Positions 19,099 through 34,843 of a DNA stretch of 64,000 nt are shown here, piece after piece; position 1 is the first letter of the stretch; the number at the start of each line of letters is the position of its first letter. Made by a program: the position numbers and the translations under genes. Under the pieces are notes generated by a model. It ran no database searches and was not told the origin of the DNA. It worked only from the letters and a program-made list of their open reading frames with translations. The stretch spans positions 22,309-86,308 of the forward strand of contig SCTX01000098.1 in the NCBI GenBank assembly GCA_004298385.1, read 5' to 3'. This stretch comes from Betaproteobacteria bacterium (lineage in GTDB: Bacteria; Pseudomonadota; Gammaproteobacteria; Burkholderiales; SG8-39).

Positions 19099-19141
19099 GC
19101 TAGCAAATGAGAGCTATTTCTAACAACCAGGGGAGGTGATG

Positions 19142-19608: not shown

Positions 19609-19637
19609 TTGTGCGTGTCGTCGCTTTGGGCTAGAAT
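19609..19637 (+). promoter_or_regulatory. Sigma-70-type promoter for tRNA-Val
   Basis: TTGTGC-N17-TAGAAT, ending 13 nt before the mature tRNA 5' end. Confidence 0.45.
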
Positions 19638-19650
19638 GCGCGTTCTTTTT

Positions 19651-19727
19651 AGGCGCGTAGCTCAGCTGGTTAGAGCATCACCTTGACATGGTGGGGGTCG
19701 TTGGTTCGAGTCCAATCGCGCCTACCA
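19651..19727 (+). tRNA. tRNA-Val (anticodon GAC), CCA encoded
   Basis: I folded the cloverleaf by hand. Acceptor stem AGGCGCG/CGCGCCT, anticodon loop TTGACAT, T-loop TTCGAGT, 5-nt variable loop. Confidence 0.9.
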
Positions 19728-19952
19728 AATTTCTCCCGATAGATCGATAAATCGAGGGTCCGCGGAGGCCCGCCCGGGACGAATTTGGGGCACATGCGCA
19801 GGCGGTCATCATCAAACCTGAAATGATTTTCATCGAGCGAGACAGTTGCCTTGGACGCGTCCGGTACGGGTGTTATCGTTTTTTGATCTGGCGCAAGCTT
19901 GTCAATTCCCGTTGTAGCAGCGTAAACCCGTCGTTAATGTGAGGAGGGTTCC

Positions 19953-20954
19953 ATGAATCCGAAAAGCAAGTTCGTATTCGCAATCCTGGCCGCTACGCTG
20001 GCAGTTGGCGCGGCGCATGCGCAGCAGCCTATCATCATCAAATTCAGCCACGTCGTCGCCGTCGGCACGCCGAAAGGCAAGGGCGCCGAGCAGTTCAAGA
20101 AGCTTGCCGAGGAGCGCGCCAAAGGGCGCGTCAAGGTCGAAGTCTATCCGAACAGTTCGCTGTTCAAGGACGGCGAGGAGATGGAAGCGCTGCAGATGGG
20201 GTCGGTCCAGATGTTGGCGCCTTCGCTCGCCAAGTTCGGCCCGCTCGGCGCGCGCGAGTTCGAGGTATTCGACCTGCCGTACATGTTCGACAGCGTCGCC
20301 GAACTGCACAAGGTCACCGCCGGTCCGGTCGGCGCGATGCTATTCAAGAAGCTCGAGTCTAAGGGCATAATGGGCCTCGCCTACTGGGACAACGGCTTCA
20401 AGCTCATGAGCGCGAACAAGCCGATTCGCGTGCCGGCCGACTACAAGGGCCTCAAGATGCGCATCCAGTCGTCGAAGGTCCTCGGTGACCAGTTCAAGGC
20501 GCTCGGTGCGATTCCGCAGGTGATGGCGTTCTCCGAGGTGTACCAGGCGATGCAGACCGGCGTGGTCGACGGCTCCGAGAACACCCCATCGAACATTTAC
20601 ACGCAGAAGCATCACGAGGTGCAGAAGTACATCGCCGAGACCAACCATGGCTACATCGGCTACGCCGTCATCGTGAACAAGAAATTCTGGGATGGGCTGC
20701 CGGCCGACGTTCGCATTGTGCTCGATGGCGCGATGAAGGACGCCACCAAATATGCGAACGAGATCGCGCAGAGCGAGAACGACGACGCGCTCGAAGCTAT
20801 TCGCAAGTCGGGCAAGTCCGAGGTGCTCAAGCTCACGGCCGAGCAGAAAGCGGCGATGAGAAAGGCGCTCTTCAGCGTGCACAAAGAGAACGAAGCGCGC
20901 GTCGGCAAGGACACGATTGCCGAAGTCTACAAAGCGACCGGGTTCAAGCCGTAA
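19953..20954 (+). CDS. dctP: TRAP transporter substrate-binding protein (C4-dicarboxylate type)
   Basis: Signal peptide plus DctP-family blocks. Strong RBS GAGGAGGG. Confidence 0.88.
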   Translation: MNPKSKFVFAILAATLAVGAAHAQQPIIIKFSHVVAVGTPKGKGAEQFKKLAEERAKGRVKVEVYPNSSLFKDGEEMEALQMGSVQMLAPSLAKFGPLGAREFEVFDLPYMFDSVAELHKVTAGPVGAMLFKKLESKGIMGLAYWDNGFKLMSANKPIRVPADYKGLKMRIQSSKVLGDQFKALGAIPQVMAFSEVYQAMQTGVVDGSENTPSNIYTQKHHEVQKYIAETNHGYIGYAVIVNKKFWDGLPADVRIVLDGAMKDATKYANEIAQSENDDALEAIRKSGKSEVLKLTAEQKAAMRKALFSVHKENEARVGKDTIAEVYKATGFKP

Positions 20955-21127
20955 GCGCGGGGTGGGCGGCACTGCGTATCGGATTGGCGCGCAACCGCGC
21001 GCCGGTGATCCCGCGATGCATCCCGAATGAACGCGCGCGATCGAGCGCGCTGCGAAATTCGATCGAGTGCGACGCGGACCAGCAGTGCCTTAGTGCGCGG
21101 ACGCAGCGGTCGAAAGGGAGGAAAGAC

Positions 21128-21727
21128 GTGAGATTTCTCGATCGTCTGGAGGAGTGGCTAATCGCGTTCATGATCGGCGCGGCTACGGTTCTCATATTCG
21201 TCGCCGTCGCGCACCGCTACATGGCCGGCGTGCCGATCCCCTTTCTGCAGGACGCGCTGCTGAAGATCGACCTGAGCTGGGCGCAGGAGCTGTGCATCTA
21301 CATGTTCGTGTGGATGGCGAAATTCGGCGCCGCTTACGGTGTGCGCACCGGCATTCACGTCGGTGTCGACGTGCTGATCAACCGGCTTCCAGATGGATCC
21401 CGCAAGCTGTACATCCTATTCGGCCTCTTGGCGGGTGCGCTGTTCACCGCCATCGTCGGCACGCTCGGGGCCGTCTTTGTCTGGGATATCGCACACGGCG
21501 ACTCGGTGTCGCCCGACCTCGAGCTGCCCAAGTGGATCGTCTACCTGTGCGTACCGCTCGGGTCATACCTCATGTGTTTCCGCTTCCTGCAGGTGGCATG
21601 GTGGTTCGGCACGACCGGCACGCTCCCGCACCACGATGAATCACACGTAGAGGGTCTCGACGACACGGATGTATACACGCTGCCCGATGACTTGCACCCG
21701 GCGCCGCTACGCCCGGAGCGGCCATGA
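21128..21727 (+). CDS. dctQ: TRAP transporter small permease
   Basis: GTG start at 21128 preceded by GGGAGGAAAG. Four TM helices. The upstream part of the track ORF (20984-21127) is Arg-rich and looks non-coding. Confidence 0.8.
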   Translation: MRFLDRLEEWLIAFMIGAATVLIFVAVAHRYMAGVPIPFLQDALLKIDLSWAQELCIYMFVWMAKFGAAYGVRTGIHVGVDVLINRLPDGSRKLYILFGLLAGALFTAIVGTLGAVFVWDIAHGDSVSPDLELPKWIVYLCVPLGSYLMCFRFLQVAWWFGTTGTLPHHDESHVEGLDDTDVYTLPDDLHPAPLRPERP

Positions 21728-23160
21728 ACGCGACCCTTCCCGCCTCCGCTGGGGCACGCGCACGCTGGCCGGCGCTGATCGCGCCCGCGACCATCGCCAT
21801 CCCGCTCGCGGTCAAGCTCGCCGGAGTGCCGGTCAACAATGCGTGGATCATCTTCACGTTGCTCGTCGGACTGATGCTGACGGGGATGCCGATCTCGATC
21901 TCGCTCGGCCTCACCGTGCTCACCTATCTCTTCACCATGACGACGGTGCCGATCGAATTGGTGGCGCTCAAGCTCTTCACCGGCATCGAGCGATTCGAGA
22001 TCATGGCGATCCCGTTCTTCATTCTCGCCGGCAACCTGCTGACGCACGGCGGCGTCGCCCGGCGGATGATCAACTTCGCCACGGCCATGGTCGGCCATTG
22101 GCACGGCGGCATGGCGGTCGCCGCCATCCTCGCCGCGGGGCTGTTTTCCGCGGTGTCGGGATCGAGTCCCGCCACCGTCGTCGCGATCGGTTCGATCATG
22201 CTGCCGGCGATGCTGCGCCACGGCTATCCGAAGCGCTACGCGGCGGGTGTAATCACGATCGGCGGCTCGCTCGGCAACATGATCCCGCCTTCGATCGTCA
22301 TGGTGATCTACAGCATCGCCACCAGCGGCATGCTGATCAAGGGCCCCGGCGGCAACATCGTGGGCAACGCCTCGGTTGGCCAGCTCTTCATGGCGGGCCT
22401 GGTACCCGGCATCGTCCTCGCATTCCTGCTCAGCGGCATCGCCTGGTACATCGCGTGGCGCAACGGCTATCCGCGCATGACGCGCGCCGGCTGGATCGCG
22501 CGCTGGAACGCGCTGCGCGAGAGTGTCTGGGGCGTCATGCTGATCATCATCGTGCTAGGCGGCATCTACGCGGGCTGGTTCACGCCCACCGAGGCCGCGG
22601 CGATGAGCGCGGTGTACGCGTTCGCGGTCGCCGTGTTCGTCTACAAGGACATGCCGCTCGCGCGCATCCCGCGCGTGCTCCTCGACTCCGCGAACATGTC
22701 GGCGATGCTGCTCTACATCATCACCAACGCGGTGCTGTTCTCGTTCCTGATGGCGCACGAAAACATTCCGCAGGCGATGTCGAATTGGATCACGACGACG
22801 GGCCTGTCCTCGTTTGAGTTCCTGCTGTTCGTCAATATCCTGCTGCTCGTCGCCGGCAACGTGATGGAGCCATCTTCGATCGTGCTGATCATGGCGCCGA
22901 TTCTGTTCCCCATCGCGGTGACGCTTGGCGTCGACCCGGTGCACTTCGGCGTGCTGATCACGCTCAACATGGAGATCGGCATGTGCCACCCGCCGGTTGG
23001 CTTGAACCTCTACGTGGCCTCCGGCATCGCGAAAATGGGTATCACCGAGTTAACGATCGCCGTCTTGCCCTATCTTGCCGGCCTCCTGTTCTTCCTGGTC
23101 GTCGTGACCTATTGGCCCGGCCTGTCGCTGTGGCTGCCGAGACTGCTGGGGATGATGTAG
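21724..23160 (+). CDS. dctM: TRAP transporter large permease
   Basis: DctM-family polytopic permease with an ATGA overlap onto dctQ. The N-terminal ~35 aa is longer than usual, so the start is uncertain. Confidence 0.85.
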   Translation: MNATLPASAGARARWPALIAPATIAIPLAVKLAGVPVNNAWIIFTLLVGLMLTGMPISISLGLTVLTYLFTMTTVPIELVALKLFTGIERFEIMAIPFFILAGNLLTHGGVARRMINFATAMVGHWHGGMAVAAILAAGLFSAVSGSSPATVVAIGSIMLPAMLRHGYPKRYAAGVITIGGSLGNMIPPSIVMVIYSIATSGMLIKGPGGNIVGNASVGQLFMAGLVPGIVLAFLLSGIAWYIAWRNGYPRMTRAGWIARWNALRESVWGVMLIIIVLGGIYAGWFTPTEAAAMSAVYAFAVAVFVYKDMPLARIPRVLLDSANMSAMLLYIITNAVLFSFLMAHENIPQAMSNWITTTGLSSFEFLLFVNILLLVAGNVMEPSSIVLIMAPILFPIAVTLGVDPVHFGVLITLNMEIGMCHPPVGLNLYVASGIAKMGITELTIAVLPYLAGLLFFLVVVTYWPGLSLWLPRLLGMM

Positions 23161-23242
23161 CGGAGGGACGCGATCGCTTGCGCGTCGCGCGCCCGGGCAG
23201 GAAAATGATTGCGCGCCGCCACTGTGGGCCGTCGGCGCGCAA

Positions 23243-24241
23243 TCAGCCGGTATAGGACGTCAGCGCCTTCATGTAGTTGCTGCGCTCGAACGCGGCCGGA
23301 TCGGGACAGGCGTGCTGGCTGAGCGAGCCCTTCATCTGTTCGACCGAGATGTAATCGCGCTCGTTCATCCATTTTTCGACGCCGTTCACCAGCGTGGCGA
23401 CATGGGCCGGCCCCTGGCGCAGCAGGCAGCTCGCGATCATGACGCAGTCGGCGCCCGCGAGCAGCAGTTTAAGCGCGTCGTCCGCGGTATGCGCTCCGCC
23501 GGTGGCGGCCAGGCTCGCCTGTACGCGGCCGCGCAGGATGGCGATCCAGCGCAGCGCCAGGCGCAGTTCGTCCGAAGTGGACAGCACTAAATGCGGCGCC
23601 ACCTCGAGTTCGTCGAGGAGGATGTCGGGCTGCAGGAAACGGTTGAACAGCACCAGGCCCGCCGCGCCGGCACTGGCGAGGCGCGCCGCCATGTTGGTCA
23701 TGGCGCTGAAGTAGGGCGACACCTTCACCGCCACCGGTATCGAAACCATGCTGCTGACCGAGGCCACCAGGTCGACGTAACGCTGCTCCACGCGGGCGCT
23801 GCTGTCCTCGGGATCGGTGGCGAGGAAGTAGATGTTGAGTTCGATCGCGTCGGCGCCGGCCTCCTCGAACTGCTTTGCGATGCGCGTCCAGCCGCCCGGA
23901 GTGTGGCCGTTTAGGCTGGGTATCACCGGCACCGAGAGCGCCGTCTTCGCCTCGCTGATCAGCTTCAGATACTTGTCGGGACCGGTGTTGTAGTTCTGCA
24001 TTTCGGGAAAGAAGCCACGCGCCTCCGGCGACAGTTCCGCCCCCGACAGCATCAGGTTGTGCGTGGCCATCTCCTCATGCTCGATCTGCTCCTCGAACAG
24101 CGACGGCAGCACCACGGCCGCGACGCCGGCGTCCTGCAGCCGCTTGAGGCTGTCGATCGAGTTGGTCATGGGCGAGGCCGCGGCCACGATGGGATTCCTC
24201 AGCTCGAGGCCCAGGTATAGGCTGCGCAAATCAGGTCTCAT
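23243..24241 (-). CDS. Dihydroorotate-dehydrogenase-like FMN TIM-barrel protein (non-canonical active site)
   Basis: Class-1 DHOD-like fold (NPIVAAASP.., ATGGAHTADDALKLLLAGADCVMIAS), but the catalytic N(I/L)SCPN block reads ELNIYFLA. The start ATG at 24241 overlaps the PFOR stop (ATGA). The rest of the 574-aa track ORF is an artefact. Confidence 0.8.
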   Translation of the reverse strand: MRPDLRSLYLGLELRNPIVAAASPMTNSIDSLKRLQDAGVAAVVLPSLFEEQIEHEEMATHNLMLSGAELSPEARGFFPEMQNYNTGPDKYLKLISEAKTALSVPVIPSLNGHTPGGWTRIAKQFEEAGADAIELNIYFLATDPEDSSARVEQRYVDLVASVSSMVSIPVAVKVSPYFSAMTNMAARLASAGAAGLVLFNRFLQPDILLDELEVAPHLVLSTSDELRLALRWIAILRGRVQASLAATGGAHTADDALKLLLAGADCVMIASCLLRQGPAHVATLVNGVEKWMNERDYISVEQMKGSLSQHACPDPAAFERSNYMKALTSYTG

Positions 24242-27200
24242 GATTGCTCCTCCGTGGAACTCGGCGTCGCCGCTGCGGGTGCCGCATTGCCGCTGTTCGC
24301 GTCGTGTTTGCCGTCCTCGGTCACGGAACGGTGCACGCCGGCCATCTGCTCGTACAGCCGCCAGCGCGCGTCGGCATCGGCCTGCGCCGCGATCGTCAAC
24401 TGTTTGGCCCGCTCCGGGTCGGCCTGGGCGAGCATGGCGTAGCGGCCCTCTTTCATGGTGAAGCGCTCCACCGGCATCGTCGGTTTGCGCGAATCGAGCT
24501 TTAGCGGCTGAGTGGCGCCGCCCATTCCCAGTCGCGGGTCGTAGTGGTATAGGGTCAGGTAGCCGCTTTTGACCGCTTCGCGCTGGTGGCTCATGCCGGT
24601 AGCCATGTCGATGCCGTGCGCGATGCATTGGCTGTAGGCGATGATCAGCGACGGCCCCGGCCAGGATGCCGCTTCCTGGAAGGTGCGCACGGTGTGCATC
24701 GGGTTCGCGCCCATCGCCACTTGGGCGACGTAGACGTTGCCGTAAGCCATGGCGATCATGCCCAGATCCTTCTTGCCCGAGGCCTTGCCGGCGGCGGCGA
24801 ACTTCGCCACCGCGCCGCGCTGCGTGGACTTCGACGCCTGTCCGCCGGTGTTGCTGTACACCTCGGTGTCGAGCACCAGGATGTTGACGTCGCGCCCCGA
24901 GGCGAGCACGTGGTCGAGCCCGCCGTAGCCGATGTCGTAGGCCCAGCCGTCGCCGCCGACGATCCACACGCTGCGCGTTACCAGGCTGTCGGCCACGGCT
25001 GCCAACTGCTGCGCCCGCACCGAGCCGAGCCGGGATAGAACGGTCTTGAGTTCCTTCACGCGCCCGCGCTGCTCGCGAATCTGCCGGTCGGACTCCTGTG
25101 GTGCTTCGAGCAGCGCCATGGATAAGCCATCGCCGAGCTCAGCGCGCAATTGGAGCACTAGCGTTTGCGCCAAGGCGCGTTGCGCGTCGAGCGCGAGGCG
25201 CATGCCGAGCCCGAACTCGGCGTTGTCCTCGAACAGGCTGTTGGCCCACGCCGGTCCCTGGCCGCTGCTGTTCTGCGCCCACGGTGTCGAGGGCAGGTTG
25301 CCGCCATAGATCGACGAGCAACCGGTGGCGTTGGCCACCAGCAGGTGATCGCCGTAGAGTTGCGACAGCAGCTTCACATACGGCGTTTCGCCGCAGCCGG
25401 CGCAGGCGCCCGAGTATTCGAACAAGGGCAGGCGCAACTGCGAGCCTTTGAGCGGATCGATCGTGTCCCACGGTGGGCGCGTCTCGGGAAGCGTGAGATA
25501 GAACTCGTAGTTGCGCCGCTCGGCCTCGATGTGATCGAGCTTGGGCTCCATGTTGATCGCTTTGCGCTTCACCACCTCCTTGCTGCGGGTCGGGCAAATG
25601 TCCACGCAAACGCCGCAGCCGGTGCAATCGTCTGGCGCCACCTGCAGGGTGTAGACCCAGCCGTCGAGCGCGGGGGTGTCCTTGCTCCTCCAGGGCACGC
25701 TCTTGAAGCCCTCCGGCGCCCCTTTTAATTGTTCCGTCGGATAAGCATTCATGCGGATGGCCGCGTGCGGGCAGGCCAGCGGGCATAAGGCGCATTGCGT
25801 GCAGATGGCTTCATCCCAGATCGGAATCTCGTGGGCAATGCTGTGCTTCTCCCACTGCGACGTCGCGGTGGGGAAAGTGCCGTCGAGCGGCAGCGCCGAC
25901 ACCGGCAGCAGGTCGCCTTTGCCGTCGAGCATCATCGCGGTGACGCGCTGGACAAATTCCGGGGCCGCGCGCGGCACCACCGGCCGGCGGCGCAACGCCG
26001 AGTCCGCGCGCGCGGGCACCTTCACTTCGCGCAGCGCGGCGAGCGACTGGTCCACGGCGGCAAAGTTGCGGCTCAACACGGACTCGCCGCGCTTGCCGTA
26101 GGTCTTGCGGATCGAGGACTTGATTTTCTCGATCGCCTCTTCGCGTGGCAGGATGCCGGAAATGGCGAAAAAGCATGCTTGGGTAACGGTATTGATGCGA
26201 CCCGCGAGGCCGGCTTCCTGCGCCACCGTCAGCGCGTCAACCACGTACATTTTGAGGTTCTTGGCGAGGATCTGCTCCTGTGTCTCGCGCGGGAGCTTGT
26301 CCCATATTTCGTCCGGACCGTAGGGACTGTTCAGGAGGAAGGTCGCGCCCGGACGGGCGAGCGCGAGCACGTCGAGCTTCCCCATGAATTCGAACTGGTG
26401 GCAGGCGACGAAGTCGGCCCGGCGGATCAGGTAGGTGGATTCGATCGGTCTTGGCCCGAAGCGCAGGTGCGATATGGTGATCGCGCCCGATTTCTTGCTG
26501 TCGTACACAAAGTAGCCCTGCGCGTGGAGCGGCGTATTCTCGCCGATGATCTTCACCGAGTTCTTGGTCGCACCGACAGTGCCGTCCGCGCCCAGACCGT
26601 AGAACACCGCGCAGGTGACGTCTTCGGCTTCGGTGTCGAAGCTCTCGTCCACCGCCAGCGACAGACGCGTGACGTCGTCGACGATCCCCACGGTGAAATG
26701 ACGCTTGGGCTGCGGTTTCGACAGTTCATCCAGCGCAGCCTTGGCCATGGCCGGCGTGTACTCCTTGGACGACAAACCGTAGCGGCCGCCGATGACTTTG
26801 GGCATGGCAAGGTCCTGCGGCCAGGCTTCGACCAGGGCGGTGACGATGTCCTGATACATGGGCTCGCCGACCGCGCCCGGCTCCTTGGTGCGGTCGAGCA
26901 CGGCGATGGCGCGCACGCTGCGCGGCAGCGCCGCGACAACGGCTTCGGTGTCAAACGGCCGGTACAGCCGCACGGTCAGGAGGCCCACTTTCTCACCACG
27001 GGCGACCAGGGCCCGGACCGCTTCGCCGGAAGCGCCGACGCCGGAGCCCATTTGCACCAGCACCCGCTCGGCATCGGCAGCGCCCTGGTAATCGAACAGC
27101 CGGTAGTGGCGACGGGTGAGCTTGGCGAACCGGTCCATGGCTTGCTGCACGATACCCGGCACCGCCATATAGAACAGGTTGCACGCTTCGCGCGCCTGGA

Positions 27201-27876
27201 AAAACACGTCCGGATTCTGCGCCGAGCCGCGCAGCACCGGCTTGTCCGGGTTGAGCGCGCGCGCGCGATGCGCCGTGACCAGTTCTTCGTCGATCAACTC
27301 GCGCACCTCTTCCTCGAACAGCAGATCGAGCCTGTTTACCTCGTGGCTGGTGCGAAATCCGTCGAAAAAATGCATGAACGGAATGCGCGAACGCAGCGTC
27401 GCCATCTGCGCGATCATGGCCATGTCCTGCGTCTCCTGCACATTGGCGGAGGCGAGCATGGCCCAGCCTGTCGTCCTCGCGGCCATCACGTCGCTGTGGT
27501 CGCCGAAGATGGAAAGCGCGTGCGTGGCCAGCGTGCGCGCCGCGATGTGAAACACCGTAGGCGTGAGTTCGCCCGCGATCTTGAACATGTTGGGAAGCAT
27601 CAACAGCAGACCCTGCGAAGCGGTGAATGTCGTGGTGAGCGCGCCCGCTTGCAGTGCGCCGTGCACGGCGCCTGCGGCGCCCGCTTCGCTTTGCATCTCG
27701 ATGACCTCCGGCACCACACCCCATAGGTTTTTCTGTCCGGCGGCCGACCAAGCGTCGGCAAACTCACCCATGCCCGATGACGGGGTGATGGGGTAGATCG
27801 CGATCACCTCGTTGGTGAGGTGGGCGATGCGTGCAGCGGCCTCGTTGCCTTCGAGGACGGCTAGGCGCGCGCTCAC
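24238..27876 (-). CDS. nifJ: Pyruvate:ferredoxin (flavodoxin) oxidoreductase, single-polypeptide NifJ/YdbK type
   Basis: 1212 aa. IYPITPSS, the 2x[4Fe-4S] domain (CTQCALCPLACP, CTGCGVCVDICP) and the TPP motif GGDGWAYDIG. GTG start with an AAGGA RBS. Confidence 0.93.
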   Translation of the reverse strand: MSARLAVLEGNEAAARIAHLTNEVIAIYPITPSSGMGEFADAWSAAGQKNLWGVVPEVIEMQSEAGAAGAVHGALQAGALTTTFTASQGLLLMLPNMFKIAGELTPTVFHIAARTLATHALSIFGDHSDVMAARTTGWAMLASANVQETQDMAMIAQMATLRSRIPFMHFFDGFRTSHEVNRLDLLFEEEVRELIDEELVTAHRARALNPDKPVLRGSAQNPDVFFQAREACNLFYMAVPGIVQQAMDRFAKLTRRHYRLFDYQGAADAERVLVQMGSGVGASGEAVRALVARGEKVGLLTVRLYRPFDTEAVVAALPRSVRAIAVLDRTKEPGAVGEPMYQDIVTALVEAWPQDLAMPKVIGGRYGLSSKEYTPAMAKAALDELSKPQPKRHFTVGIVDDVTRLSLAVDESFDTEAEDVTCAVFYGLGADGTVGATKNSVKIIGENTPLHAQGYFVYDSKKSGAITISHLRFGPRPIESTYLIRRADFVACHQFEFMGKLDVLALARPGATFLLNSPYGPDEIWDKLPRETQEQILAKNLKMYVVDALTVAQEAGLAGRINTVTQACFFAISGILPREEAIEKIKSSIRKTYGKRGESVLSRNFAAVDQSLAALREVKVPARADSALRRRPVVPRAAPEFVQRVTAMMLDGKGDLLPVSALPLDGTFPTATSQWEKHSIAHEIPIWDEAICTQCALCPLACPHAAIRMNAYPTEQLKGAPEGFKSVPWRSKDTPALDGWVYTLQVAPDDCTGCGVCVDICPTRSKEVVKRKAINMEPKLDHIEAERRNYEFYLTLPETRPPWDTIDPLKGSQLRLPLFEYSGACAGCGETPYVKLLSQLYGDHLLVANATGCSSIYGGNLPSTPWAQNSSGQGPAWANSLFEDNAEFGLGMRLALDAQRALAQTLVLQLRAELGDGLSMALLEAPQESDRQIREQRGRVKELKTVLSRLGSVRAQQLAAVADSLVTRSVWIVGGDGWAYDIGYGGLDHVLASGRDVNILVLDTEVYSNTGGQASKSTQRGAVAKFAAAGKASGKKDLGMIAMAYGNVYVAQVAMGANPMHTVRTFQEAASWPGPSLIIAYSQCIAHGIDMATGMSHQREAVKSGYLTLYHYDPRLGMGGATQPLKLDSRKPTMPVERFTMKEGRYAMLAQADPERAKQLTIAAQADADARWRLYEQMAGVHRSVTEDGKHDANSGNAAPAAATPSSTEEQS

Positions 27877-27920
27877 GTTTTCCTTTCCATCATGTTGTTC
27901 TCCTTACTGCCCGCGTGGCG

Positions 27921-28556
27921 CTACAGAAGCCCGGCCTTGCCGGACTTCCAGCGCTCGTATTCGGTAGTCAGCAGCGCCACATGCTCGCGCTCTTCGGCGG
28001 CGAGTTCCTTGTACAGATCCCGCTCGACCGAGCCCTCGGGCGATTTCGCGCCCTGCTCGCTGAAGAACTTCACCGCCCGCTCCTCGAAGGCGATGGCGAC
28101 GCGAAACAGGTTGGCTGGATCCTCGGGCTTGCGCTCCACGCCGGCAAAGATGGCCGCGTGATCGATCTGGAAGTCCTCGGCCGGCTGCGGCAAATCCGCG
28201 TGGTAACGTTTGGACAAGGTCTGCATGTGCTCCTGCTCCATCGCGGCGAAACGGCCGAAGAGCTCCCGTAGCAGCGGGTCCTTCGACTCGTTCGCCGCGC
28301 GTCGGTAGAAGGCATGGCCGCCGAGCTCGATCTCGAACGCCGCGCGGATGGCGGCTAGGCCTTTGGTGTCGTTAATCGGCCCGCGCTCGAGGATCTCCAG
28401 CTTGCCGTTGCAATGCGGGCACATGCCATAGGGAAAGGCAAAGCCCTCGCTCACCTTGCCGCAGGCGCCGCACCGCCACCTGAGTTCGAGGTTGGCGCAG
28501 CAAATGTAGACTTCCTCGCCTTCGATCGGGCGCTGGCACTTTGGACAGGAGATCAT
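27921..28556 (-). CDS. Zinc-ribbon + ferritin/rubrerythrin-like domain protein
   Basis: N-terminal cysteine pairs CPKC..CC..CGAC..CPHC, then a four-helix diiron-like region (E..H: EQEH, EEREH). The ATG at 28556 overlaps the upstream stop (ATGA). Confidence 0.7.
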   Translation of the reverse strand: MISCPKCQRPIEGEEVYICCANLELRWRCGACGKVSEGFAFPYGMCPHCNGKLEILERGPINDTKGLAAIRAAFEIELGGHAFYRRAANESKDPLLRELFGRFAAMEQEHMQTLSKRYHADLPQPAEDFQIDHAAIFAGVERKPEDPANLFRVAIAFEERAVKFFSEQGAKSPEGSVERDLYKELAAEEREHVALLTTEYERWKSGKAGLL

Positions 28557-30928
28557 GGTCGGCTCTCGCTCCGGGTGCCGGTCGGCGCGGGCCCGCCGAG
28601 GGCGGGCGGCGGCGCGAAAGCGTCGGCGTCTTCCTGGGTGACGGGCCATTTCTGCTTGCCGCTTTGCAGATAGGCGCCGATCGACCTGGCCGCGCGGCGG
28701 CCGGCCCCCATGGCAAGGATGACGGTTGCCGCGCCGGTGACAATGTCGCCGCCCGCAAACACCCCGGGCAGCGTGGTGGCCTGCGTCGCCGGGTCGGCAA
28801 TGATGTAACCCCATTGGTTGAGGCCCAGCCCCTGCGTCGACTGCGTGACGATCGGGTTGGCCTTGGTGCCGAGCGCGTAGATCGCGGTATCGCATTCAAG
28901 CTCGACGAATTCGTCCAGGGGTACGGGCTTGCGCCGGCCCTTCTCGTCGGGTTCGCCCAGCATCATCTTCTGCACCTTCATCCCGCGAACGTTGCCTTCG
29001 GCGTCGGTGAGGATCTCGACCGGCGTGTGCAGGAAGAAGAACTCGATGCCTTCTTCCTTGGCATGGCGGATTTCCTCGATGCGCGCCGGGGCCTCGGTCT
29101 CGGACCGGCGATAGACGCAGCGCACGGTCGGCGCGCCCAGGCGCTTGGCCACGCGCAGGCAGTCCATCGCCGTGTTCCCGGCGCCGATCACGATCACGCT
29201 CTGGCCCAGAGTGATCGGCGTGTCGAGATAGGGAAATTTGTCGCCGCCCATCAGGTTGACGCGCGTCAGGAATTCGTTCGCGGAATAGACCTGGCCGGCA
29301 AACTCGCCCGGGATGCCGAGAAAGGAGGGCGCGCCGGCGCCCGCGCCGACGAACACCGCGTCGTAGTCCATCTCGCCCATGAGTTGCGCGATGGAGAAGG
29401 TCTTGCCGATCACCTTGTTGGTTTCGAACTTGACGCCCATACCCTTCAAGTTTTCGACTTCGCGGCTGATGATGTCGCGCGGCAGGCGGAACGAGGGGAT
29501 TCCGTATTGGAGCACGCCGCCGATCACGTGCAGCGCCTCGAACACGGTGACGTCGCAGCCGTAGCGCGCCAGGTCGGCGGCGACGGCGAGTCCCGAGGGT
29601 CCGGAACCGACGATGGCGACCCGGCCCAGTTCGCGCCCGAAGCTTGGCGGCCGGGCCTTGGGCGCACGGGCATTGTCGCCGACGAAGCGTTCCAGCCGGC
29701 CGATCGCCACCGGCTCCATCTTTATATTCTTGTTCTTGCCGATGATGCACTGGGCCTCGCATTGCGATTCCTGCGGGCAGACGCGGCCGCACACCGACGG
29801 AAACAGGTTGGATTCATTGATTACGCCGAGCGCGCCGTCGAGGTCGCGCACCAGCAGGTGGCGAATGAAGCGCGGGATGTCGATCGACACCGGGCAGCCG
29901 GCGATGCAGACGGGCTTGGTGCACATGATGCAGCGTTCGGCCTCCTCCAGCGCATCATGCATGCTGTAGCCCAGGTTTACCTCCTTGAAGTTGCGCGAGC
30001 GCTCGAGCGCGTCGCGCTCCGGCATCTTCACGGCGTGAGGTGAGAGGTCCTTGTACTTCTTGTAATTGTGCTTATTCTGCTCGAACAGCACCTTCTCCAC
30101 GTGGCAAACATGGGCGTAATCCTCGCTCGCCTGCGACTCCTGCCCCTTGAAGCGCCGCTGCCGCAGGACCAGTTCCTTGAAGTCGACCAGATGGCCGTCG
30201 AAGTCCGGCCCGTCGACGCAGGCGAACTTGACCTTGCCGCCGACGCTGACGCGGCAGGAGCCGCACATGCCGGTGCCGTCGACCATGATGGCGTTGAGCG
30301 ACACCATGGTTTTGACGCCATAGGGCCGCGTCGTCTCGACACATGCGTTCATCATCGGCAGCGGCCCGATGGCGATGACCAGATCCGGCTGGTCGCGCTC
30401 GAGTACGTCCTTCAATACCGAGGTGACGAAGCCCGGCGTGCCGTAGCTGCCGTCGTCGGTGCAGACGATCAGCTTATCGCAGAACTCGTTGAAGCGGTCC
30501 TCCCAGAACACCAGGTCCTTGTTGCGAAAACCGATGATGCCCGTGGTGCGATTGCCGGCGTTCTTGAATGCCCGCAACTGCGGATAGATGGGCGCCACGC
30601 CGAGTCCGCCGCCAACCAGCACTACGTGTCCGACCCGGCTCACCTGTTGCGGCATGCCGAGCGGGCCGACGAAATCGGCGAAGCGGTCGCCCTCCTTGTA
30701 GTGATCGCGCATCTCGAGCGTGGTCTTGCCGAGGGACTGGATCACCATGGTGATCGTGCCCTTGTCGCGGTCGAAATCGGCCACCGTCAGCGGGATGCGC
30801 TCGCTGCCTTCGTGCATGCGCACCATGACAAAATGGCCGGGTTGGGCGGATTTCGCCACGTCGGGGACCATCACCTCCCAGAGAAAGGTCGTGTCGGAAA
30901 AGACTTCGCGGCGGACAATGGTGTACAT
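28553..30928 (-). CDS. Fused NfnA/PyrK-like (FAD, 2Fe-2S) + NfnB/GltD-like (2x4Fe-4S, FAD, NAD(P)H) oxidoreductase
   Basis: N-terminal MYTIVRREVF.. with MCGSCRV (PyrK/SudB type). C-terminal half has CIMCTKPVCIAGCP, VAIVGSGPSGLA and VIGAGNTAMDC (GltD/SudA type). I prefer the ATG at 30928 over the TTG at 30967 by analogy with NfnA/SudB N-termini. Confidence 0.8.
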   Translation of the reverse strand: MYTIVRREVFSDTTFLWEVMVPDVAKSAQPGHFVMVRMHEGSERIPLTVADFDRDKGTITMVIQSLGKTTLEMRDHYKEGDRFADFVGPLGMPQQVSRVGHVVLVGGGLGVAPIYPQLRAFKNAGNRTTGIIGFRNKDLVFWEDRFNEFCDKLIVCTDDGSYGTPGFVTSVLKDVLERDQPDLVIAIGPLPMMNACVETTRPYGVKTMVSLNAIMVDGTGMCGSCRVSVGGKVKFACVDGPDFDGHLVDFKELVLRQRRFKGQESQASEDYAHVCHVEKVLFEQNKHNYKKYKDLSPHAVKMPERDALERSRNFKEVNLGYSMHDALEEAERCIMCTKPVCIAGCPVSIDIPRFIRHLLVRDLDGALGVINESNLFPSVCGRVCPQESQCEAQCIIGKNKNIKMEPVAIGRLERFVGDNARAPKARPPSFGRELGRVAIVGSGPSGLAVAADLARYGCDVTVFEALHVIGGVLQYGIPSFRLPRDIISREVENLKGMGVKFETNKVIGKTFSIAQLMGEMDYDAVFVGAGAGAPSFLGIPGEFAGQVYSANEFLTRVNLMGGDKFPYLDTPITLGQSVIVIGAGNTAMDCLRVAKRLGAPTVRCVYRRSETEAPARIEEIRHAKEEGIEFFFLHTPVEILTDAEGNVRGMKVQKMMLGEPDEKGRRKPVPLDEFVELECDTAIYALGTKANPIVTQSTQGLGLNQWGYIIADPATQATTLPGVFAGGDIVTGAATVILAMGAGRRAARSIGAYLQSGKQKWPVTQEDADAFAPPPALGGPAPTGTRSESRP

Positions 30929-31177
30929 GGAATTGTCTTGCGGCACTGGAAAAAGTCGGTAGGACAAAAAGTTGGGAGGACTAATGCGCGCCGGTTTCCG
31001 GCTGAGCAGCGTGATGGCGCCGGTCAGGCGTCGCGATGCATCGCGAGCGGGTCATACCTGCATCAGCCCGGCCTGCCGTTGCAGCAAGCCACAATAGGTG
31101 ACACTGGGTGACACTGCGTCCTCTCCTCGTCCTACGACGATACTGTATGAGCGTAAATTGTAGCAGCTATCCACGTA

Positions 31178-31191
31178 TTGACGCAGATCAA
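31178..31191. promoter_or_regulatory. FNR/CRP-family box TTGAC-N4-ATCAA (proximal to the PFOR cluster)
   Basis: TTGACgcagATCAA, 9/10 match to TTGAT-N4-ATCAA. Confidence 0.65.
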
Positions 31192-31329
31192 ACGGGCGAA
31201 CGTGGTGTTCTCGACCGGCTTCGTGCCGCGCCATCATCGATGATGCGGCGCGCGACGGATTGGCGATGCGACGCGGGCCGCCATTGCAAATGCCGTATGT
31301 ATTTGTAGTTCGAAGATTTAGCCAGGCGT

Positions 31330-31343
31330 TTGACCTGGATCAA
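31330..31343. promoter_or_regulatory. FNR/CRP-family box TTGAC-N4-ATCAA (proximal to frdABCD)
   Basis: TTGACctggATCAA. It has the same half-site variant as the box at 31178. Confidence 0.65.
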
Positions 31344-31550
31344 CAAAGCGTAAGTCGACGGGCGGTAACTTACGCTACACGGTTCGTGAGTTCAGCATTC
31401 GATCATTCCCGCCGAGCGGGCGGGCAATGAGCGGCTGAGCGGCGGACCGTATTTTTTAAATGCGTGACCACGATACCGGCTCGGAATTGGAGTTGCGGCG
31501 GAATTGGAGTTACACTTATTAAGTGGTTACGCGCAGAGGGAGGGTAAACA

Positions 31551-33347
31551 GTGGAAGTTTTCAAGGCAGATGTGGCGATTGTGGGCGCGGGCGGCGGAGG
31601 ACTGCGAGCGGCAATCGCGGTCGCGGAAAGCGATCCGAAGCTGAAAATCGCGCTGATTTCCAAAGTGCTGCCAATGCGCAGCCACACCGTGGCTGCAGAA
31701 GGCGGCGCGGCCGCGGTGACGCGGCCCGACGACAGCCTGGACCACCATTTCAACGATACCGTTGGCGGCGGCGATTGGCTGTGCGAGCAGGACGTGGTCG
31801 AGTACTTCGTCGCTCATGCCCACGAAGAGGTGGTGCAGATGGAGCACTGGGGTTGCCCATGGAGCCGCACGGAGGACGGGCACGCGAACGTGCGGCCATT
31901 CGGCGGCATGAAGATCGAGCGCACCTGGTTTGCCGCGGACAAGACCGGGTTCCACATGCTGCACACGCTGTTCCAGACTTCGATCAAATATCCTTCGATC
32001 AAGCGCTTTGACGAGCATTTCTGTGTAGATTTGGTGGTGGAAGACGGACGGGTCCAAGGCGCGGTTGTGATCGAGATCGCCACTGGCGCGTTTCGGCTGA
32101 TCCAGGCGAAGGCGGTGATCATTGCAACCGGCGGCGCGGGCCGCGTGTTCCGCGAAAATACCAATGGCGGTATCGTCACCGGCGACGGTATGGCCCTTGC
32201 GTACCGCCACGGCGTGCCGCTGCGCGATATGGAATTCATGCAATATCACCCGACCTGCATGCCGCGCACCGGCTTGCTGTTCACCGAGGCATGCCGCGGC
32301 GAAGGCGGGTTCCTGATCAACAAAGATGGCTATCGCTATCTCCAGGATTATGGGCTCGGGCCTGCCGAGGATAAGCCACGCAACAAGTTCATGGAGCTGG
32401 GTCCGCGCGACCGCGTGAGCCAGGCGTATTGGCACGAGCAGAAAAAGGGCAGGACCATCGAAGGCCCTTTTGGCTCGGTCGTGCACCTGGACATGCGCCA
32501 TCTGGGCGAGGCGAAGCTGCGCGAGCGCCTGCCGCAAATATACGAACTGGCGGAAGAATTCATGGGCATCGATCCGGCGCACGCGCCGATCCCGGTGCTT
32601 CCAGCGGTGCATTACACCATGGGCGGAATCCTCGCCTACGGCAATACGGCATCGTCGCTGCCAGGACTGTATTCGGTCGGCGAATGCTCAAGCGTAGGCA
32701 TACACGGGGCCAACCGACTGGGTTCCAATTCGCTCACGGAACTGGTGGTGTTCGGCAAGGTAGCCGGCGTCGAGGCAGCGAAGTACGCGAAATCGGTGTC
32801 GATCACCAATCCGGGTGCGATCGAGAAACAGGCCGAGTCGGTGCAGGCGCGCGCCCTTGGAATCGTCAACCAGTCCGGCGGCGCCGAGCGCATTGCAGTG
32901 CTGCGCACCGAAATGGCGAAAAGCATGGAAAGCGGCTGCGGTATCTACCGCCTCGCCACCGACATGCAGGCCACCTGCGACAAGATTGGCGAGCTCAGGC
33001 AGCGCTACAAGAAACTCAAGGTTGAAGACCAGTCGAAAGTCTACAACACCGATTGGCTGCTCGCGATCGAACTCGGTTATCTGCTCGATGTGGCGGAGAC
33101 TATTGTGCACTCTGCACTCAAGCGCAAGGAGTCGCGCGGTTCGCACCAACGCCTGGACGGCTACGAGCAGCGCGATGACGCCAATTTCCTCAAGCACACA
33201 CTCGCCTACTACAACGGAGACAGCCCGCCGCGCATCGAATACGGGGATGTGAAAATCACCAAGTCCAAACCAGGCACACGCGCCTACGGAGCAGCCGGCG
33301 TGAAAGCCGATGAAGAACGCAAGAAACAGGGAGCAGCCAATGGCTGA
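31551..33347 (+). CDS. frdA: Fumarate reductase flavoprotein subunit
   Basis: GTG start after AGAGGGAGGG. VAIVGAGGGGLRAA and the covalent-FAD histidine context MRSHTVAAEGG. Close to the E. coli FrdA N-terminus. Confidence 0.92.
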   Translation: MEVFKADVAIVGAGGGGLRAAIAVAESDPKLKIALISKVLPMRSHTVAAEGGAAAVTRPDDSLDHHFNDTVGGGDWLCEQDVVEYFVAHAHEEVVQMEHWGCPWSRTEDGHANVRPFGGMKIERTWFAADKTGFHMLHTLFQTSIKYPSIKRFDEHFCVDLVVEDGRVQGAVVIEIATGAFRLIQAKAVIIATGGAGRVFRENTNGGIVTGDGMALAYRHGVPLRDMEFMQYHPTCMPRTGLLFTEACRGEGGFLINKDGYRYLQDYGLGPAEDKPRNKFMELGPRDRVSQAYWHEQKKGRTIEGPFGSVVHLDMRHLGEAKLRERLPQIYELAEEFMGIDPAHAPIPVLPAVHYTMGGILAYGNTASSLPGLYSVGECSSVGIHGANRLGSNSLTELVVFGKVAGVEAAKYAKSVSITNPGAIEKQAESVQARALGIVNQSGGAERIAVLRTEMAKSMESGCGIYRLATDMQATCDKIGELRQRYKKLKVEDQSKVYNTDWLLAIELGYLLDVAETIVHSALKRKESRGSHQRLDGYEQRDDANFLKHTLAYYNGDSPPRIEYGDVKITKSKPGTRAYGAAGVKADEERKKQGAANG

Positions 33348-34095
33348 TACCGAGAAAATCATTGAGATTCAGGTTCTGCGCTACCGTCCGGAACAGGATA
33401 AGGAACCGGTATTGCAAAGTTACAAGGTTCCTTTCACCGATGACATGTCCGTGCTGCAGGGCTTGCAGTACATCAAGGACTACCTTGACGAAACGGTGAG
33501 CTTCCGTTGGTCGTGCCGCATGGCGATTTGCGGCAGTTGTGGCATGATGATCGACGGCAAGCCCAAACTTTCGTGCAAGACCTTCCTGCGCGAGTACTAT
33601 CCCCAGGGCCTGCGCGTGGAGGCGCTGGCGCACATGCCGATCGAACGCGACCTTATCGTTTCGGTCGAAGATTTCGTCACCAAGCTCGAAAGCATCAAGC
33701 CGTACATCATTCCCAAGGAACCGCGCACGCTGGAGCAGGGCGAATACCTGCAAACGCCGCAGCAGCGGGATATGTACGAGCAGTTCAGTTCGTGCATCAA
33801 CTGCATGCTGTGCTACGCTGCCTGCCCGCAGTATGGGCTCAATCCGAAATTCACCGGGCCGGGCGTGCTCGCGCTGCTGCACCGCTACAACGCCGATTCG
33901 CGCGATGGCGGGCAGGCCGAGCGCCTTGGCTTGGGATATGCGGATGAAGGCTTCTGGGGTTGCACCGCGGTCGGCTACTGCTCCGAGGTGTGTCCGAAGG
34001 GCGTCGACCCGGCCAACGCGATCAACCAAAACAAGATGAACAGCGCGATAAATTATTTCACCAGGTTCGTCACGCCAGGGGGAGCAGACAAATGA
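33340..34095 (+). CDS. frdB: Fumarate reductase iron-sulfur subunit
   Basis: Three Cys clusters (CRMAICGSCGMM, CINCMLCYAACP, CTAVGYCSEVCP). The ATG at 33340 overlaps the frdA end. Confidence 0.9.
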   Translation: MADTEKIIEIQVLRYRPEQDKEPVLQSYKVPFTDDMSVLQGLQYIKDYLDETVSFRWSCRMAICGSCGMMIDGKPKLSCKTFLREYYPQGLRVEALAHMPIERDLIVSVEDFVTKLESIKPYIIPKEPRTLEQGEYLQTPQQRDMYEQFSSCINCMLCYAACPQYGLNPKFTGPGVLALLHRYNADSRDGGQAERLGLGYADEGFWGCTAVGYCSEVCPKGVDPANAINQNKMNSAINYFTRFVTPGGADK

Positions 34096-34487
34096 GCAAT
34101 CGTCGACCCTACGTCCGGTCCATGGATGGTTGGTGGAAACGGGATCCCTATTTCATCCGCTACATGGCGCGCGAAGTCACGGCGGTGTTCGTCGCCGCCT
34201 ATGCGGTGCTGCTGCTGGTCGGCCTGGTGCGTCTGGGCCAGGGCGAGGCCGCGTTCAACGGCTGGCTGCAGTACCTGAAAACGCCGTGGATGCTGGTGTT
34301 CCACCTGATCGTGCTGGCGGTGTTCTGCTACCATACATGGAGCTGGTTCAACATCATGCCCAAGACCATGCCGATCATGTTCGTCGGCGGCAAGCGCGTG
34401 CAGCCAGGGGCCATCACCGGAACCGGACTCGCTGCTTCCGTAATCGCGTGCCTGGCCGTGTTATTCATTGTGCGGGGGATGAGCTAA
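34092..34487 (+). CDS. frdC: Fumarate reductase membrane anchor subunit C
   Basis: 131 aa with 3 TM helices. RRPYVRSMDGWWKRDPYF resembles the FrdC N-terminus. ATGA overlap with frdB. Confidence 0.85.
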   Translation: MSNRRPYVRSMDGWWKRDPYFIRYMAREVTAVFVAAYAVLLLVGLVRLGQGEAAFNGWLQYLKTPWMLVFHLIVLAVFCYHTWSWFNIMPKTMPIMFVGGKRVQPGAITGTGLAASVIACLAVLFIVRGMS

Positions 34488-34843
34488 TGAAACGCTCCAA
34501 CGAACCGATTTTCTGGTCCCTGTTCGGCGCCGGCGGCATGCTGGCGGCGCTGATTGGCCCGGCGCTGGTGTTCATCACCGGCATCGCCGTTCCGTTTGGT
34601 TTGTTTTTCAAACCCGACACCATGAGTTACGCGCATATGCTCGCGTTCTCTCAAAGCTGGGCGGGCAAGATTTTTGTGCTGGCGGTCATTGCGCTGTTCC
34701 TGTGGCACGCGGCGCACCGCATACACATTTTGTTGCACGATTTTGGCGTGCATGCGGTTACGGCGGTCAGAGTTCTCTGCTATGGTGGCGCCTTTGCGGG
34801 AACGGTAATCGCTGCCTATACATTGCTGATGATCAAGGCTTGA
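34487..34843 (+). CDS. frdD: Fumarate reductase membrane anchor subunit D
   Basis: 118 aa with 3 TM helices. KRSNEPIFWSLFGAGGM resembles the FrdD N-terminus. TAATG overlap with frdC. Confidence 0.85.
   Translation: MKRSNEPIFWSLFGAGGMLAALIGPALVFITGIAVPFGLFFKPDTMSYAHMLAFSQSWAGKIFVLAVIALFLWHAAHRIHILLHDFGVHAVTAVRVLCYGGAFAGTVIAAYTLLMIKA

Follow-up and report, generated by a model that had tools for sequence, protein, structure and literature searches.

The 64,000-nucleotide (nt) window analysed here (betaproteobacterial contig SCTX01000098.1 of assembly GCA_004298385.1, positions 22,309 to 86,308 of the forward strand; G+C content ~63%) contains a genuine operon that is shared among a group of betaproteobacteria and joins a pyruvate:ferredoxin oxidoreductase (PFOR) and a fused NfnAB flavoprotein, each with a conserved partner. 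Its four consecutive genes, all on the minus strand, encode the NfnA-NfnB fusion (g1), a protein with eight cysteines and a ferritin-like diiron domain (g2), the PFOR (g3), and a dihydroorotate dehydrogenase (DHOD)-like FMN barrel (g4). This four-gene block consists of two independently conserved pairs juxtaposed within one clade, and its two ATGA overlaps (g1/g2 at 28556-28553 and g3/g4 at 24241-24238) mark the pairs. A previous reading of the bare letters (hereafter, the sequence-only reading) had called the four genes, their coordinates, and both overlaps, all borne out by the listing of open reading frames (ORFs), their translation, and inspection of the junctions; its gene identities are also correct, as judged by Pfam, NCBIfam, and PDB matches. 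We consider it probable, at about 60%, that the locus is an anaerobic redox operon in which PFOR would reduce ferredoxin and Nfn would couple ferredoxin to NAD(P)H, linked to fumarate reduction.

Two surveys of gene neighbourhoods, the loci of which are designated by L numbers, reveal this modular structure. In the first, anchored on g4, diverse g4 homologues were aligned, one genome per species was scanned, and the window proteins were located by tblastn in the resulting 80 loci. A PFOR gene lies directly upstream of the g4 homologue and on the same strand in 73 of the 76 loci with enough sequence, which span ~10 phyla (Planctomycetota, Actinomycetota, Chloroflexota, Cyanobacteria, Bacteroidota, Verrucomicrobiota, Acidobacteriota, and others). 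Across these phyla, 31 of the 72 measurable PFOR/DHOD-like junctions overlap, 25 of them by the 4-nt ATGA/GTGA arrangement and 6 otherwise. The DHOD-like gene occurs without PFOR in L025, L072, and L079, and the neighbours found there are uninformative. Clustering of all flanking ORFs yielded no other widely conserved neighbour of the PFOR and DHOD-like genes, the most frequent being ferredoxin (6 loci) and an Nfn fusion, Hox hydrogenase, and pyruvate phosphate dikinase (5 each); the Nfn and ferritin-like genes together accompany them in this survey only in the betaproteobacterial loci L006, L007, and L017. At five non-betaproteobacterial loci, L054 and L068 among those surveyed, the PFOR and DHOD-like genes lie ~5 kb or less from NiFe (Hox-type) hydrogenase genes, and at five others they lie near pyruvate phosphate dikinase.

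In the second survey, metagenome contigs were scanned for relatives of g2. Without exception, an NfnB-like gene is found directly upstream (65/65 loci), and 58 of 79 loci have the 4-nt overlap seen here between g1 and g2. The sequence-only reading had staked itself on the conservation of the four genes together in other genomes and, in this respect, it holds well: PFOR follows directly downstream of the g2 relative in 52 of 60 loci and both PFOR and the DHOD-like gene do so in 33 of 39 (~85%). Nevertheless, its image of a single four-part machine is not supported, since the Nfn and ferritin-like pair also exists without PFOR, in Georgfuchsia toluolica, Anaeromyxobacter, and several metagenome loci. 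In at least 120 sequence clusters this pair is even encoded as one in-frame fusion of ~1000 amino acids (aa), monocistronic in Anaeromyxobacter dehalogenans 2CP-1 and in a second genome (L170); in a betaproteobacterial metagenome-assembled genome (MAG) the fusion gene is followed by those for PFOR, the DHOD-like protein, ferredoxin, and dodecin, and by nqr. Because Nfn and the ferritin-like protein (module A) occur without PFOR, and PFOR and the DHOD-like protein (module B) without Nfn, the cluster is composed of two modules; likewise, the recurrence of both types of ATGA overlap, that of g3/g4 across phyla, indicates that they are not due to chance. The nearest relatives of the window are MAGs of Burkholderiales and other betaproteobacteria, some of them Georgfuchsia-like.

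The same relatives clarify the question of the electron carrier. Neither scanning every ORF of 40 aa or more for motifs nor searching with the ferredoxin of the relatives by tblastn revealed any ferredoxin or flavodoxin gene in the 64-kb window, where the only clusters of this kind are those of PFOR and FrdB. The statement of the sequence-only reading that no ferredoxin gene is present can thus be extended to the whole window, but it does not apply to most relatives: in 23 of the 33 with at least 700 nt of sequence beyond the DHOD-like gene, the next gene, on the same strand and within 200 nt, encodes an 81-aa 2x[4Fe-4S] ferredoxin (pattern MAL.I.DDCTACDAC...CPN.AI...C.EC.G....PQC..VCP.DCI). 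In L090, L091, and L150 it separates the DHOD-like gene from the convergent dctM gene that directly adjoins g4 in the window; there, the two genes are only 83 nt apart (23161-23242), a stretch occupied mostly by a terminator hairpin. Since the ferredoxin gene directly follows the DHOD-like gene in most relatives, its absence here is a local, lineage-specific loss at this site and is weak evidence for a ferredoxin-free wire. In L169 (15741-16272) and L086 (15415-20663), the operon runs past the ferredoxin gene into one for dodecin, a flavin-storage protein, and then into nqrA, nqrB, and others encoding the Na+-translocating NADH:quinone reductase; L086 also contains a malic-enzyme fragment.

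Judging from its sequence, g3 is a canonical homodimer-type PFOR. It reaches 1717 bits against TIGR02176 (cut-off 911) over residues 6-1179, contains the Pfam domains POR_N, PFOR_II, POR, EKR, Fer4, and TPP_enzyme_C, and aligns with the Moorella and Desulfovibrio structures (6cin, 1348 bits, and 1b0p, 1281 bits). Domains I-VI, the thiamine pyrophosphate (TPP) motif, and the sites of two ferredoxin-type clusters and of a third cluster are all recognisable, including two CxxCxxCxxxCP motifs and the GDGWAYDIG and CAGCGETPY...GCSS segments (TPP and cluster motifs) kept in common with E. coli YdbK, to which g3 is 54% identical; a 33-aa low-complexity tail extends beyond the PFOR domains at the C-terminus. 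A Pfam scan found no flavodoxin or FNR-type domain, which separates g3 from the Euglena-type pyruvate:NADP+ oxidoreductase (PNO).

Its partner g4 belongs, over residues 4-330 of its 332, to NF005741 (PRK07565, ‘dihydroorotate dehydrogenase-like protein’; 458.6 bits, cut-off 303), a family whose name rests on no tested function, and it scores just 75-88 bits against the PyrD and PreA equivalog models (cut-offs 269-335). In its AlphaFold2 (AF2) model (predicted local distance difference test, pLDDT, 86.8), the nearest folds are domain IV of dihydropyrimidine dehydrogenase (DPD) and class 1A DHOD, with a template-modelling (TM) score of ~0.7 and ~19% identity. g4 is thus a member of the FMN-binding (beta/alpha)8 barrels and would be expected to bind the flavin itself: in the family alignment the FMN-site Lys, K173, is invariant and N111, N136, and N200 are nearly so. 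Where L. lactis DHODA has ELNLSCPNVPG, g4 has ELNIYFLATDP, with Cys130 replaced by Phe139 and Asn132 by Ala141, and it lacks the SCPN loop. The family alignment shows no conserved Cys, which places g4 outside the PyrD/PreA type as defined by its catalytic base. Therefore, g4 is not a dihydroorotate or dihydropyrimidine dehydrogenase. It had been suggested that g4 completes a PyrK/PyrD or DPD-like unit with g1, a view at odds with its conserved partner being PFOR in ~10 phyla with no Nfn, GltD, or PyrK gene nearby. Eight longer homologues, considered as possible Rosetta-stone fusions, add nothing informative in the way of domains; the response-regulator N-terminus of one of them probably results from an error in gene calling. 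Neither g4 (best sequence match E = 2.6e-8 over 70 residues) nor g2 has a close solved structure in the PDB, and we found no biochemistry for either of them in the open-access literature.

The g1 protein is a genuine fused NfnAB, in the order NfnA then NfnB. Its Pfam domains are DHODB_Fe-S_bind, Fer4_20, Pyr_redox_2, and NAD_binding_8, and both NfnA-type and NfnB-type modules are present, the latter with two [4Fe-4S], FAD, and NADPH sites. Residues 1-265 align with the small subunit of P. furiosus NfnI (5jca_S, 309 bits) and with T. maritima NfnA (4ylf_A, 256 bits), residues 301-761 with T. maritima NfnB (4ylf_B, 503 bits), and the large subunit of P. furiosus NfnI (5jca_L) is matched with 467 bits. 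The [2Fe-2S] motif DGTGMCGSCRV...FACVDGP (VDGTGMCGSCRVSVGGKVKFACVDGP) is of the same kind as in the structurally characterised Nfn proteins, and in the NfnB part the [4Fe-4S] sites CIMCTKPVCIAGCP and VCGRVCPQESQCEAQC, including the CPQE.QCE segment, align with the T. maritima motifs. NCBIfam models agree (NF004862, 390 bits, cut-off 220; TIGR01316, 542 bits, cut-off 472). A further model, NF009413 (PRK12775, ‘trifunctional ... ferritin domain-containing protein’, ~1006 aa), covers both genes, with g1 matching positions 1-773 (1541 bits) and g2 positions 798-1006 (357 bits); neither alone reaches its cut-off of 1895 bits as the single polypeptide would. Conservation of the split at so many loci identifies g1 and g2 as a split form of this family. 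We considered a sequencing frameshift in the 1006-aa protein and rejected it, as the 4-nt overlap recurs from one independent locus to the next and genuine fusions number only 3.

The assignment of g2 is less straightforward. Its diiron ligand set is complete, in the E / ExxH / E / ExxH order of a rubrerythrin-type four-helix bundle (E75/E77, E107-x-x-H110, E158, and E189-x-x-H192), and these residues are invariant in 16 homologues, together with the eight cysteines of the N-terminus (C4, C7, C19, C20, C29, C32, C46, and C49), the CxxC pairs of which (two pairs twice over) suggest a zinc ribbon or a rubredoxin-like site. The Pfam Rubrerythrin profile is matched only in part (residues 71-119, 36.7 bits, cut-off 22.8), as a partial Rubrerythrin/Ferritin_2 match. 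The AF2 model contains four long helices and a poorly modelled N-terminal Cys region (pLDDT 45-64), where the match to the rubredoxin domain of rubrerythrin is marginal (E = 0.66). Foldseek retrieves as best hits the uncharacterised COG1633 proteins 2oh3 and 2fzf, followed by bacterioferritins, all of ferritin-like fold. The ‘Zn-ribbon rubrerythrin-like’ label of the sequence-only reading is thus compatible with the eight Cys, the diiron ligands, and the ferritin-like fold, but the fold is closest to COG1633 and not to rubrerythrin specifically; g2 is rubrerythrin-like in its parts and is not demonstrably a rubrerythrin.

Some details of the translation starts deserve mention. A TTG at 30967 would extend g1 to 804 aa, but homologues and NCBIfam models begin at the ATG that gives 791 aa. 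The spacing between g2 and g3 is 44 nt. The GTG start of g3 is replaced by ATG at the same position in relatives, which have the same GAAAGGAAA Shine-Dalgarno sequence upstream. At 27873-27893 (minus strand), after a strong AAGGAG Shine-Dalgarno sequence, there is a mini-ORF of six codons (ATG ATG GAA AGG AAA ACG TGA) that overlaps the PFOR start as GTGA; its equivalent, ATGATTGAAAGGAA(A/G)CCATGA, is present in several relatives (L088, L089, L098, L103, L107, and L109) and not in all. This mini-ORF might encode a coupling leader peptide or merely arise from the conservation of the ribosome-binding site.

Table 1. Operon genes and neighbouring features in the window.
Feature	Position	Strand	Description
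g1, fused NfnA-NfnB	28553-30928	-	791 aa; ATG start; NfnA = PyrK-like FAD/NAD module + [2Fe-2S]; NfnB = 2x[4Fe-4S], FAD, NADPH site
g2, Cys8 + ferritin-like diiron protein, Nfn partner	27921-28556	-	211 aa
g3, PFOR, homodimer type	24238-27876	-	1212 aa; GTG start
g4, DHOD-like FMN TIM barrel, PFOR partner	23243-24241	-	332 aa
FNR/CRP-family box TTGACCTGGATCAA	31330-31343		1 mismatch to TTGAT-N4-ATCAA; 214 nt upstream of frdA
FNR/CRP-family box TTGATCTGCGTCAA (minus-strand reading)	31178-31191		256 nt upstream of g1 ATG
Probable intrinsic terminator	23197-23245	-	13-bp GC-rich stem right after g4 stop, then UCAUUUUCC
Divergent frdABCD fumarate reductase operon	31551-34843	+	frdA 31551-33347, frdB 33340-34095, frdC 34092-34487, frdD 34487-34843; Pfam and ORF translations
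TRAP C4-dicarboxylate transporter dctP-dctQ-dctM	19953-23160	+	Convergent; Pfam DctP, DctQ, DctM

The borders of the operon are also informative (Table 1). TTGAT-N4-ATCAA boxes with at most one mismatch occur 5 times in the 64 kb, two of them within the 622-nt intergenic region between g1 and frdA. Of 50 related loci, 31 have such a box in the 400 nt preceding nfn, compared with a background of 0.018 per 400 nt, and the loci with module A only have none. At the other end, the terminator hairpin (-28.4 kcal/mol, z = -4.4 against shuffled sequences) was missed by a consensus scan. The boxes and the hairpin are consistent with the single transcription unit that the sequence-only reading presupposes, and their position suggests that the locus is probably one anaerobically induced unit, which lies next to genes of fumarate reduction and seems to share an FNR-box control region with them. 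The association with complex II is recurrent: 19 of 29 related loci have, upstream of nfn and in divergent orientation, a flavoprotein gene of the FrdA/SdhA type, either like E. coli FrdA or of another Sdh/Frd type.

In the window, the frdABCD operon is complete, of the E. coli type, and adjoins thrS-infC-rpmI-rplT-pheS-pheT; the same relative position is occupied by sdhCDA in L001 and by frdCAB-fumC-dcuB in L086. L001 (GCA_040960315.1) is 99.5% identical to the window over 13243-31425 and has, beyond this point, sdhC-sdhD-sdhA instead of frdABCD-thrS. The breakpoint at 31425, 126 nt upstream of frdA, leaves both FNR-type boxes on the shared side; either the strains differ here by a rearrangement or one of the two assemblies contains a chimeric metagenome contig. 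On the opposite flank, the same TRAP (tripartite ATP-independent periplasmic) transporter is a neighbour in L090, L091, L103, L104, and L150. Two weaker FNR-like boxes, with 2 mismatches each, are present at 19823-19896, just upstream of dctP (start 19953), and might place this transporter in the same regulon; boxes of this quality are common in the window (31 found against 12 expected).

In our favoured reading of an anaerobic redox operon, PFOR would convert pyruvate and CoA to acetyl-CoA and CO2 and would pass its low-potential electrons to a small 2x[4Fe-4S] ferredoxin, encoded by the fifth gene of the operon in most relatives and presumably elsewhere in the genome of the window. The fused NfnAB would use reduced ferredoxin and NADH to reduce 2 NADP+, or operate in reverse. 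The link between PFOR and NAD(P)(H) anticipated by the sequence-only reading is thereby retained and, via the Nfn module, constitutes the most economical reading. With fumarate reductase and a C4-dicarboxylate transporter at its sides, the operon would sustain anoxic pyruvate oxidation, the electrons entering the pyridine-nucleotide pool and from there reaching fumarate; we infer this direction of electron flow, and the bifurcating activity of Nfn, from the identities and arrangement of the genes. The FMN barrel of class 1B DHOD and of DPD, which has the DHOD fold, receives its electrons from a neighbouring Fe-S domain or subunit. Because such a barrel lies beside an 8Fe ferredoxin-like domain in DPD, and the same fold accepts Fe-S electrons in DPD/PreA and class 1B DHOD, g4 may dock near the ferredoxin-like domain of PFOR as an FMN redox partner; it would be a PFOR-specific accessory that has lost the DHOD catalytic Cys. 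Similarly, g2 would be an Nfn-specific accessory, physically associated with g1 in the split form as it is covalently in the fusions found elsewhere, and may pass electrons to H2O2 or O2 or else have a regulatory or iron-related role.

Several points weigh against this reading. It leaves g2 and g4, the accessory proteins conserved most strongly, without a positive function. Since no ferredoxin or flavodoxin gene occurs in the window, the electron carrier is assumed and not seen. The E. coli PFOR gene, ydbK, has no DHOD-like neighbour and its product works in this situation, so that g4 is not a general PFOR requirement. The FNR boxes are located 215-255 nt from the start codons, and a scan for sigma-70 consensus promoters gave no match. 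Finally, bifurcating activity is not assignable to Nfn homologues from sequence alone (PMC6405883, Perspectives).

The sequence-only reading favoured a self-contained wire, in which the four proteins form one complex and electrons flow from the PFOR clusters to the FMN of g4, then to Nfn and NAD(P)+, making it a ferredoxin-independent pyruvate:NAD(P)+ oxidoreductase or a confurcating complex. The block is indeed tightly conserved, with short gaps and overlaps, and the ferredoxin gene has been lost in the lineage of the window and in ~10 of 33 relatives while the other four genes were kept. NAD(P)-linked genes of the GltD/Nfn type have moreover been recruited beside PFOR and DHOD-like genes separately in betaproteobacteria, in the verrucomicrobial L075, and in Propionibacterium (PMC7650540), and the fold of g4 matches that of barrels which take Fe-S electrons in class 1B DHOD and DPD. 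However, most relatives retain a dedicated ferredoxin gene in the operon, each module is conserved without the other, and no protein fusion between modules A and B appears in any hit list. In addition, the PyrK-like [2Fe-2S] cluster of NfnAB already faces NfnB, which, to judge from the architecture of 4ylf and 5jca, would leave no obvious PyrD-type docking site for g4. We consequently regard such a wire as unlikely.

We would give no better odds to a protective role, which partly overlaps with our preferred reading. Nfn and the ferritin-like protein would together act as a self-contained NAD(P)H-driven H2O2/O2 reductase, in which electrons would leave the flavins and Fe-S clusters for the Cys4 centre and end, like those of rubrerythrin, at the diiron site, while g4 would scavenge O2 or re-reduce the PFOR clusters, so that PFOR would be kept active in micro-oxia. 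The full diiron ligand set, the eight invariant Cys, and the Rubrerythrin Pfam match of g2 agree with this idea, as does the fusion of g2 to the Nfn C-terminus in many genomes. The PFOR and DHOD-like pair is also found largely in lineages that include aerobes and facultative anaerobes (cyanobacteria, Actinomycetota, and Planctomycetota), and the PFOR of Synechocystis works in aerobic cells though its in vitro activity needs anoxia (PMC8887894), its operon including a DHOD-like gene (PMC11368403). Yet the fold of g2 is nearest to generic ferritin-like and COG1633 proteins, its Cys region is the one modelled with low confidence, and peroxidase or oxidase activity is not readable from a sequence; besides, the strict anaerobe-like Georgfuchsia has module A alone and FNR-type control points to expression without oxygen.

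The weakest alternative, which we find rather improbable, is a pyruvate synthase running in the opposite direction, with Nfn bifurcating NADPH electrons to give reduced ferredoxin and PFOR carboxylating acetyl-CoA to pyruvate so that acetate or a stored polymer feeds a reductive C4 branch: both enzymes are reversible (PMC6405883) and the neighbours (fumarate reductase and the C4-dicarboxylate transporter here; fumarase, malic enzyme, and DcuB in relatives) would suit it, but the window contains no other marker of the reductive tricarboxylic acid cycle or of CO2 fixation, and the expression of related operons is linked to fermentative or micro-oxic pyruvate oxidation (PMC11368403, PMC7650540, PMC5148189).

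Beyond the operon itself, we tentatively propose that the DHOD-like protein is a subunit, hitherto overlooked, that brings FMN to a form of PFOR widespread in cyanobacteria, Actinomycetota, Planctomycetota, Chloroflexota, Bacteroidota, betaproteobacteria, and others. It would sit on the ferredoxin-like domain and provide a second electron exit, leading either to a two-electron acceptor such as NAD(P)+, fumarate, or quinone or, sacrificially, to O2; the betaproteobacteria would have added to the same operon another uncharacterised pair, Nfn and a diiron protein. Such an exit, if it exists, could explain how a supposedly oxygen-sensitive enzyme works in aerobic cells. Should the DHOD-like protein alter the electron acceptor or the oxygen tolerance of PFOR, this would address the function of PFOR in oxic cells, a question raised for cyanobacteria, E. 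coli, and Sulfolobus (PMC8887894), and would affect both the annotation of PFOR and its heterologous expression. Both PFOR and Nfn serve in metabolic engineering and are central to the metabolism of low-potential electrons. In the survey, a large share of the PFOR genes outside the classical strict anaerobes is paired with a conserved FMN-barrel partner, often by translational coupling, and a whole branch of Nfn enzymes carries a diiron domain. For the window, the significance is more modest: a well-conserved operon, placed beside fumarate reductase genes, that would oxidise pyruvate and balance redox in the absence of oxygen.

Known systems offer partial parallels for each component. The PNO of Euglena and Cryptosporidium is a PFOR fused to a cytochrome-P450-reductase-type FMN/FAD domain, and the phenylglyoxylate dehydrogenase PadEFGHI is an NAD-linked, multi-subunit 2-oxoacid:ferredoxin oxidoreductase. 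Like the locus described here, both join a 2-oxoacid:ferredoxin oxidoreductase core to pyridine nucleotides by means of added flavoprotein modules; in contrast with the Pad enzyme, the models of which score far below their cut-offs on the window proteins, the NAD(P) module is here a complete Nfn. With DPD, PreTA, and class 1B DHOD (PyrK and PyrD), g4 shares the FMN TIM-barrel fold, the FMN-site Lys, and the ELN and FNR Asn residues, but it has no Fe-S domain of its own, and its conserved genomic partner is PFOR and not a PyrK or GltD protein. In the same manner, g2 shares with rubrerythrin, reverse rubrerythrin, and COG1633 proteins a four-helix diiron bundle (E / ExxH / E / ExxH) and a Cys-rich, putatively metal-binding domain, and differs from rubrerythrin in having eight Cys instead of four, located at the N-terminus, in matching only part of the profile, and in being tied to Nfn and not to rubredoxin/NROR systems. 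Nfn itself is established as a ferredoxin/NADH:NADP+ enzyme (PMC6405883). The ‘Pattern B’ fusions (e.g. in C. autoethanogenum; PMC6405883) are the nearest layout, having the NfnA-NfnB domain order of g1. The differences are that g1 comes from a betaproteobacterium and is always accompanied by the Cys8 and ferritin-like diiron protein, whose gene overlaps that of g1 here and is joined to it elsewhere (NF009413-type fusions of ~1000 aa), a partner that figures in none of the four Nfn architectural patterns of PMC6405883.

The neighbourhood of Nfn and PFOR has precedents as well. In some microbes, nfn lies beside genes for PFOR, succinate dehydrogenase (SDH), fumarate reductase (FRD), and fumarate hydratase (PMC6405883), and a possible further case is the highly expressed three-gene ‘PFOR operon’ of Accumulibacter (CAP2UW1_2510-2512; PMC5148189). 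Both nfn-PFOR adjacency and the idea of a complex are already in print, and the enzymes are new members of known families. As far as we found, what seems unpublished is the breadth and tightness of the PFOR and DHOD-like pairing across phyla, the pairing and fusion of Nfn with the diiron protein, and the five-gene ancestral layout with ferredoxin; in the open-access literature we found no work on the function of the DHOD-like partner or of the pair formed by Nfn and the ferritin-like protein. In Synechocystis, a single transcription unit, induced transiently in micro-oxia, comprises nifJ (sll0741), sll0743, and sll0744 (‘dihydroorotate dehydrogenase (fumarate)’) (PMC11368403, Table 1). When purified by itself, the PFOR of this organism is stable in air and shows in vitro activity only under anoxia, although it functions in aerobic cells by ‘mechanisms not understood yet’ (PMC8887894). 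The cyanobacterial loci L055, L062, L068, L073, and L074 have the same order as the window, PFOR and then the DHOD-like gene; the Synechocystis operon differs in lacking the Nfn and ferritin-like module, in having a hypothetical gene in between, and in being controlled by SigE and cyAbrB2 and not by FNR-type boxes. In Propionibacterium, GltD/NfnB-like and DHOD-like genes flank PFOR (nifJ1), are co-transcribed and co-regulated with it, and have led to the postulate of a bifurcating complex (PMC7650540, section 3.4.3). The sequence-only reading was aware of no biochemical description of the combination: none was indeed found in the open-access literature, but a closely similar complex had already been proposed for Propionibacterium (PMC7650540). 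The latter has only an NfnB-like gene, with an extra ferredoxin-binding site, and not NfnA-NfnB plus a ferritin-like protein, and the proposal assigns to its DHOD-like protein a quinol-oxidising role (PMC7650540); nevertheless, the Propionibacterium locus resembles the window in having PFOR placed between a gene for an NAD(P)-linked Fe-S flavoprotein and a DHOD-like gene.

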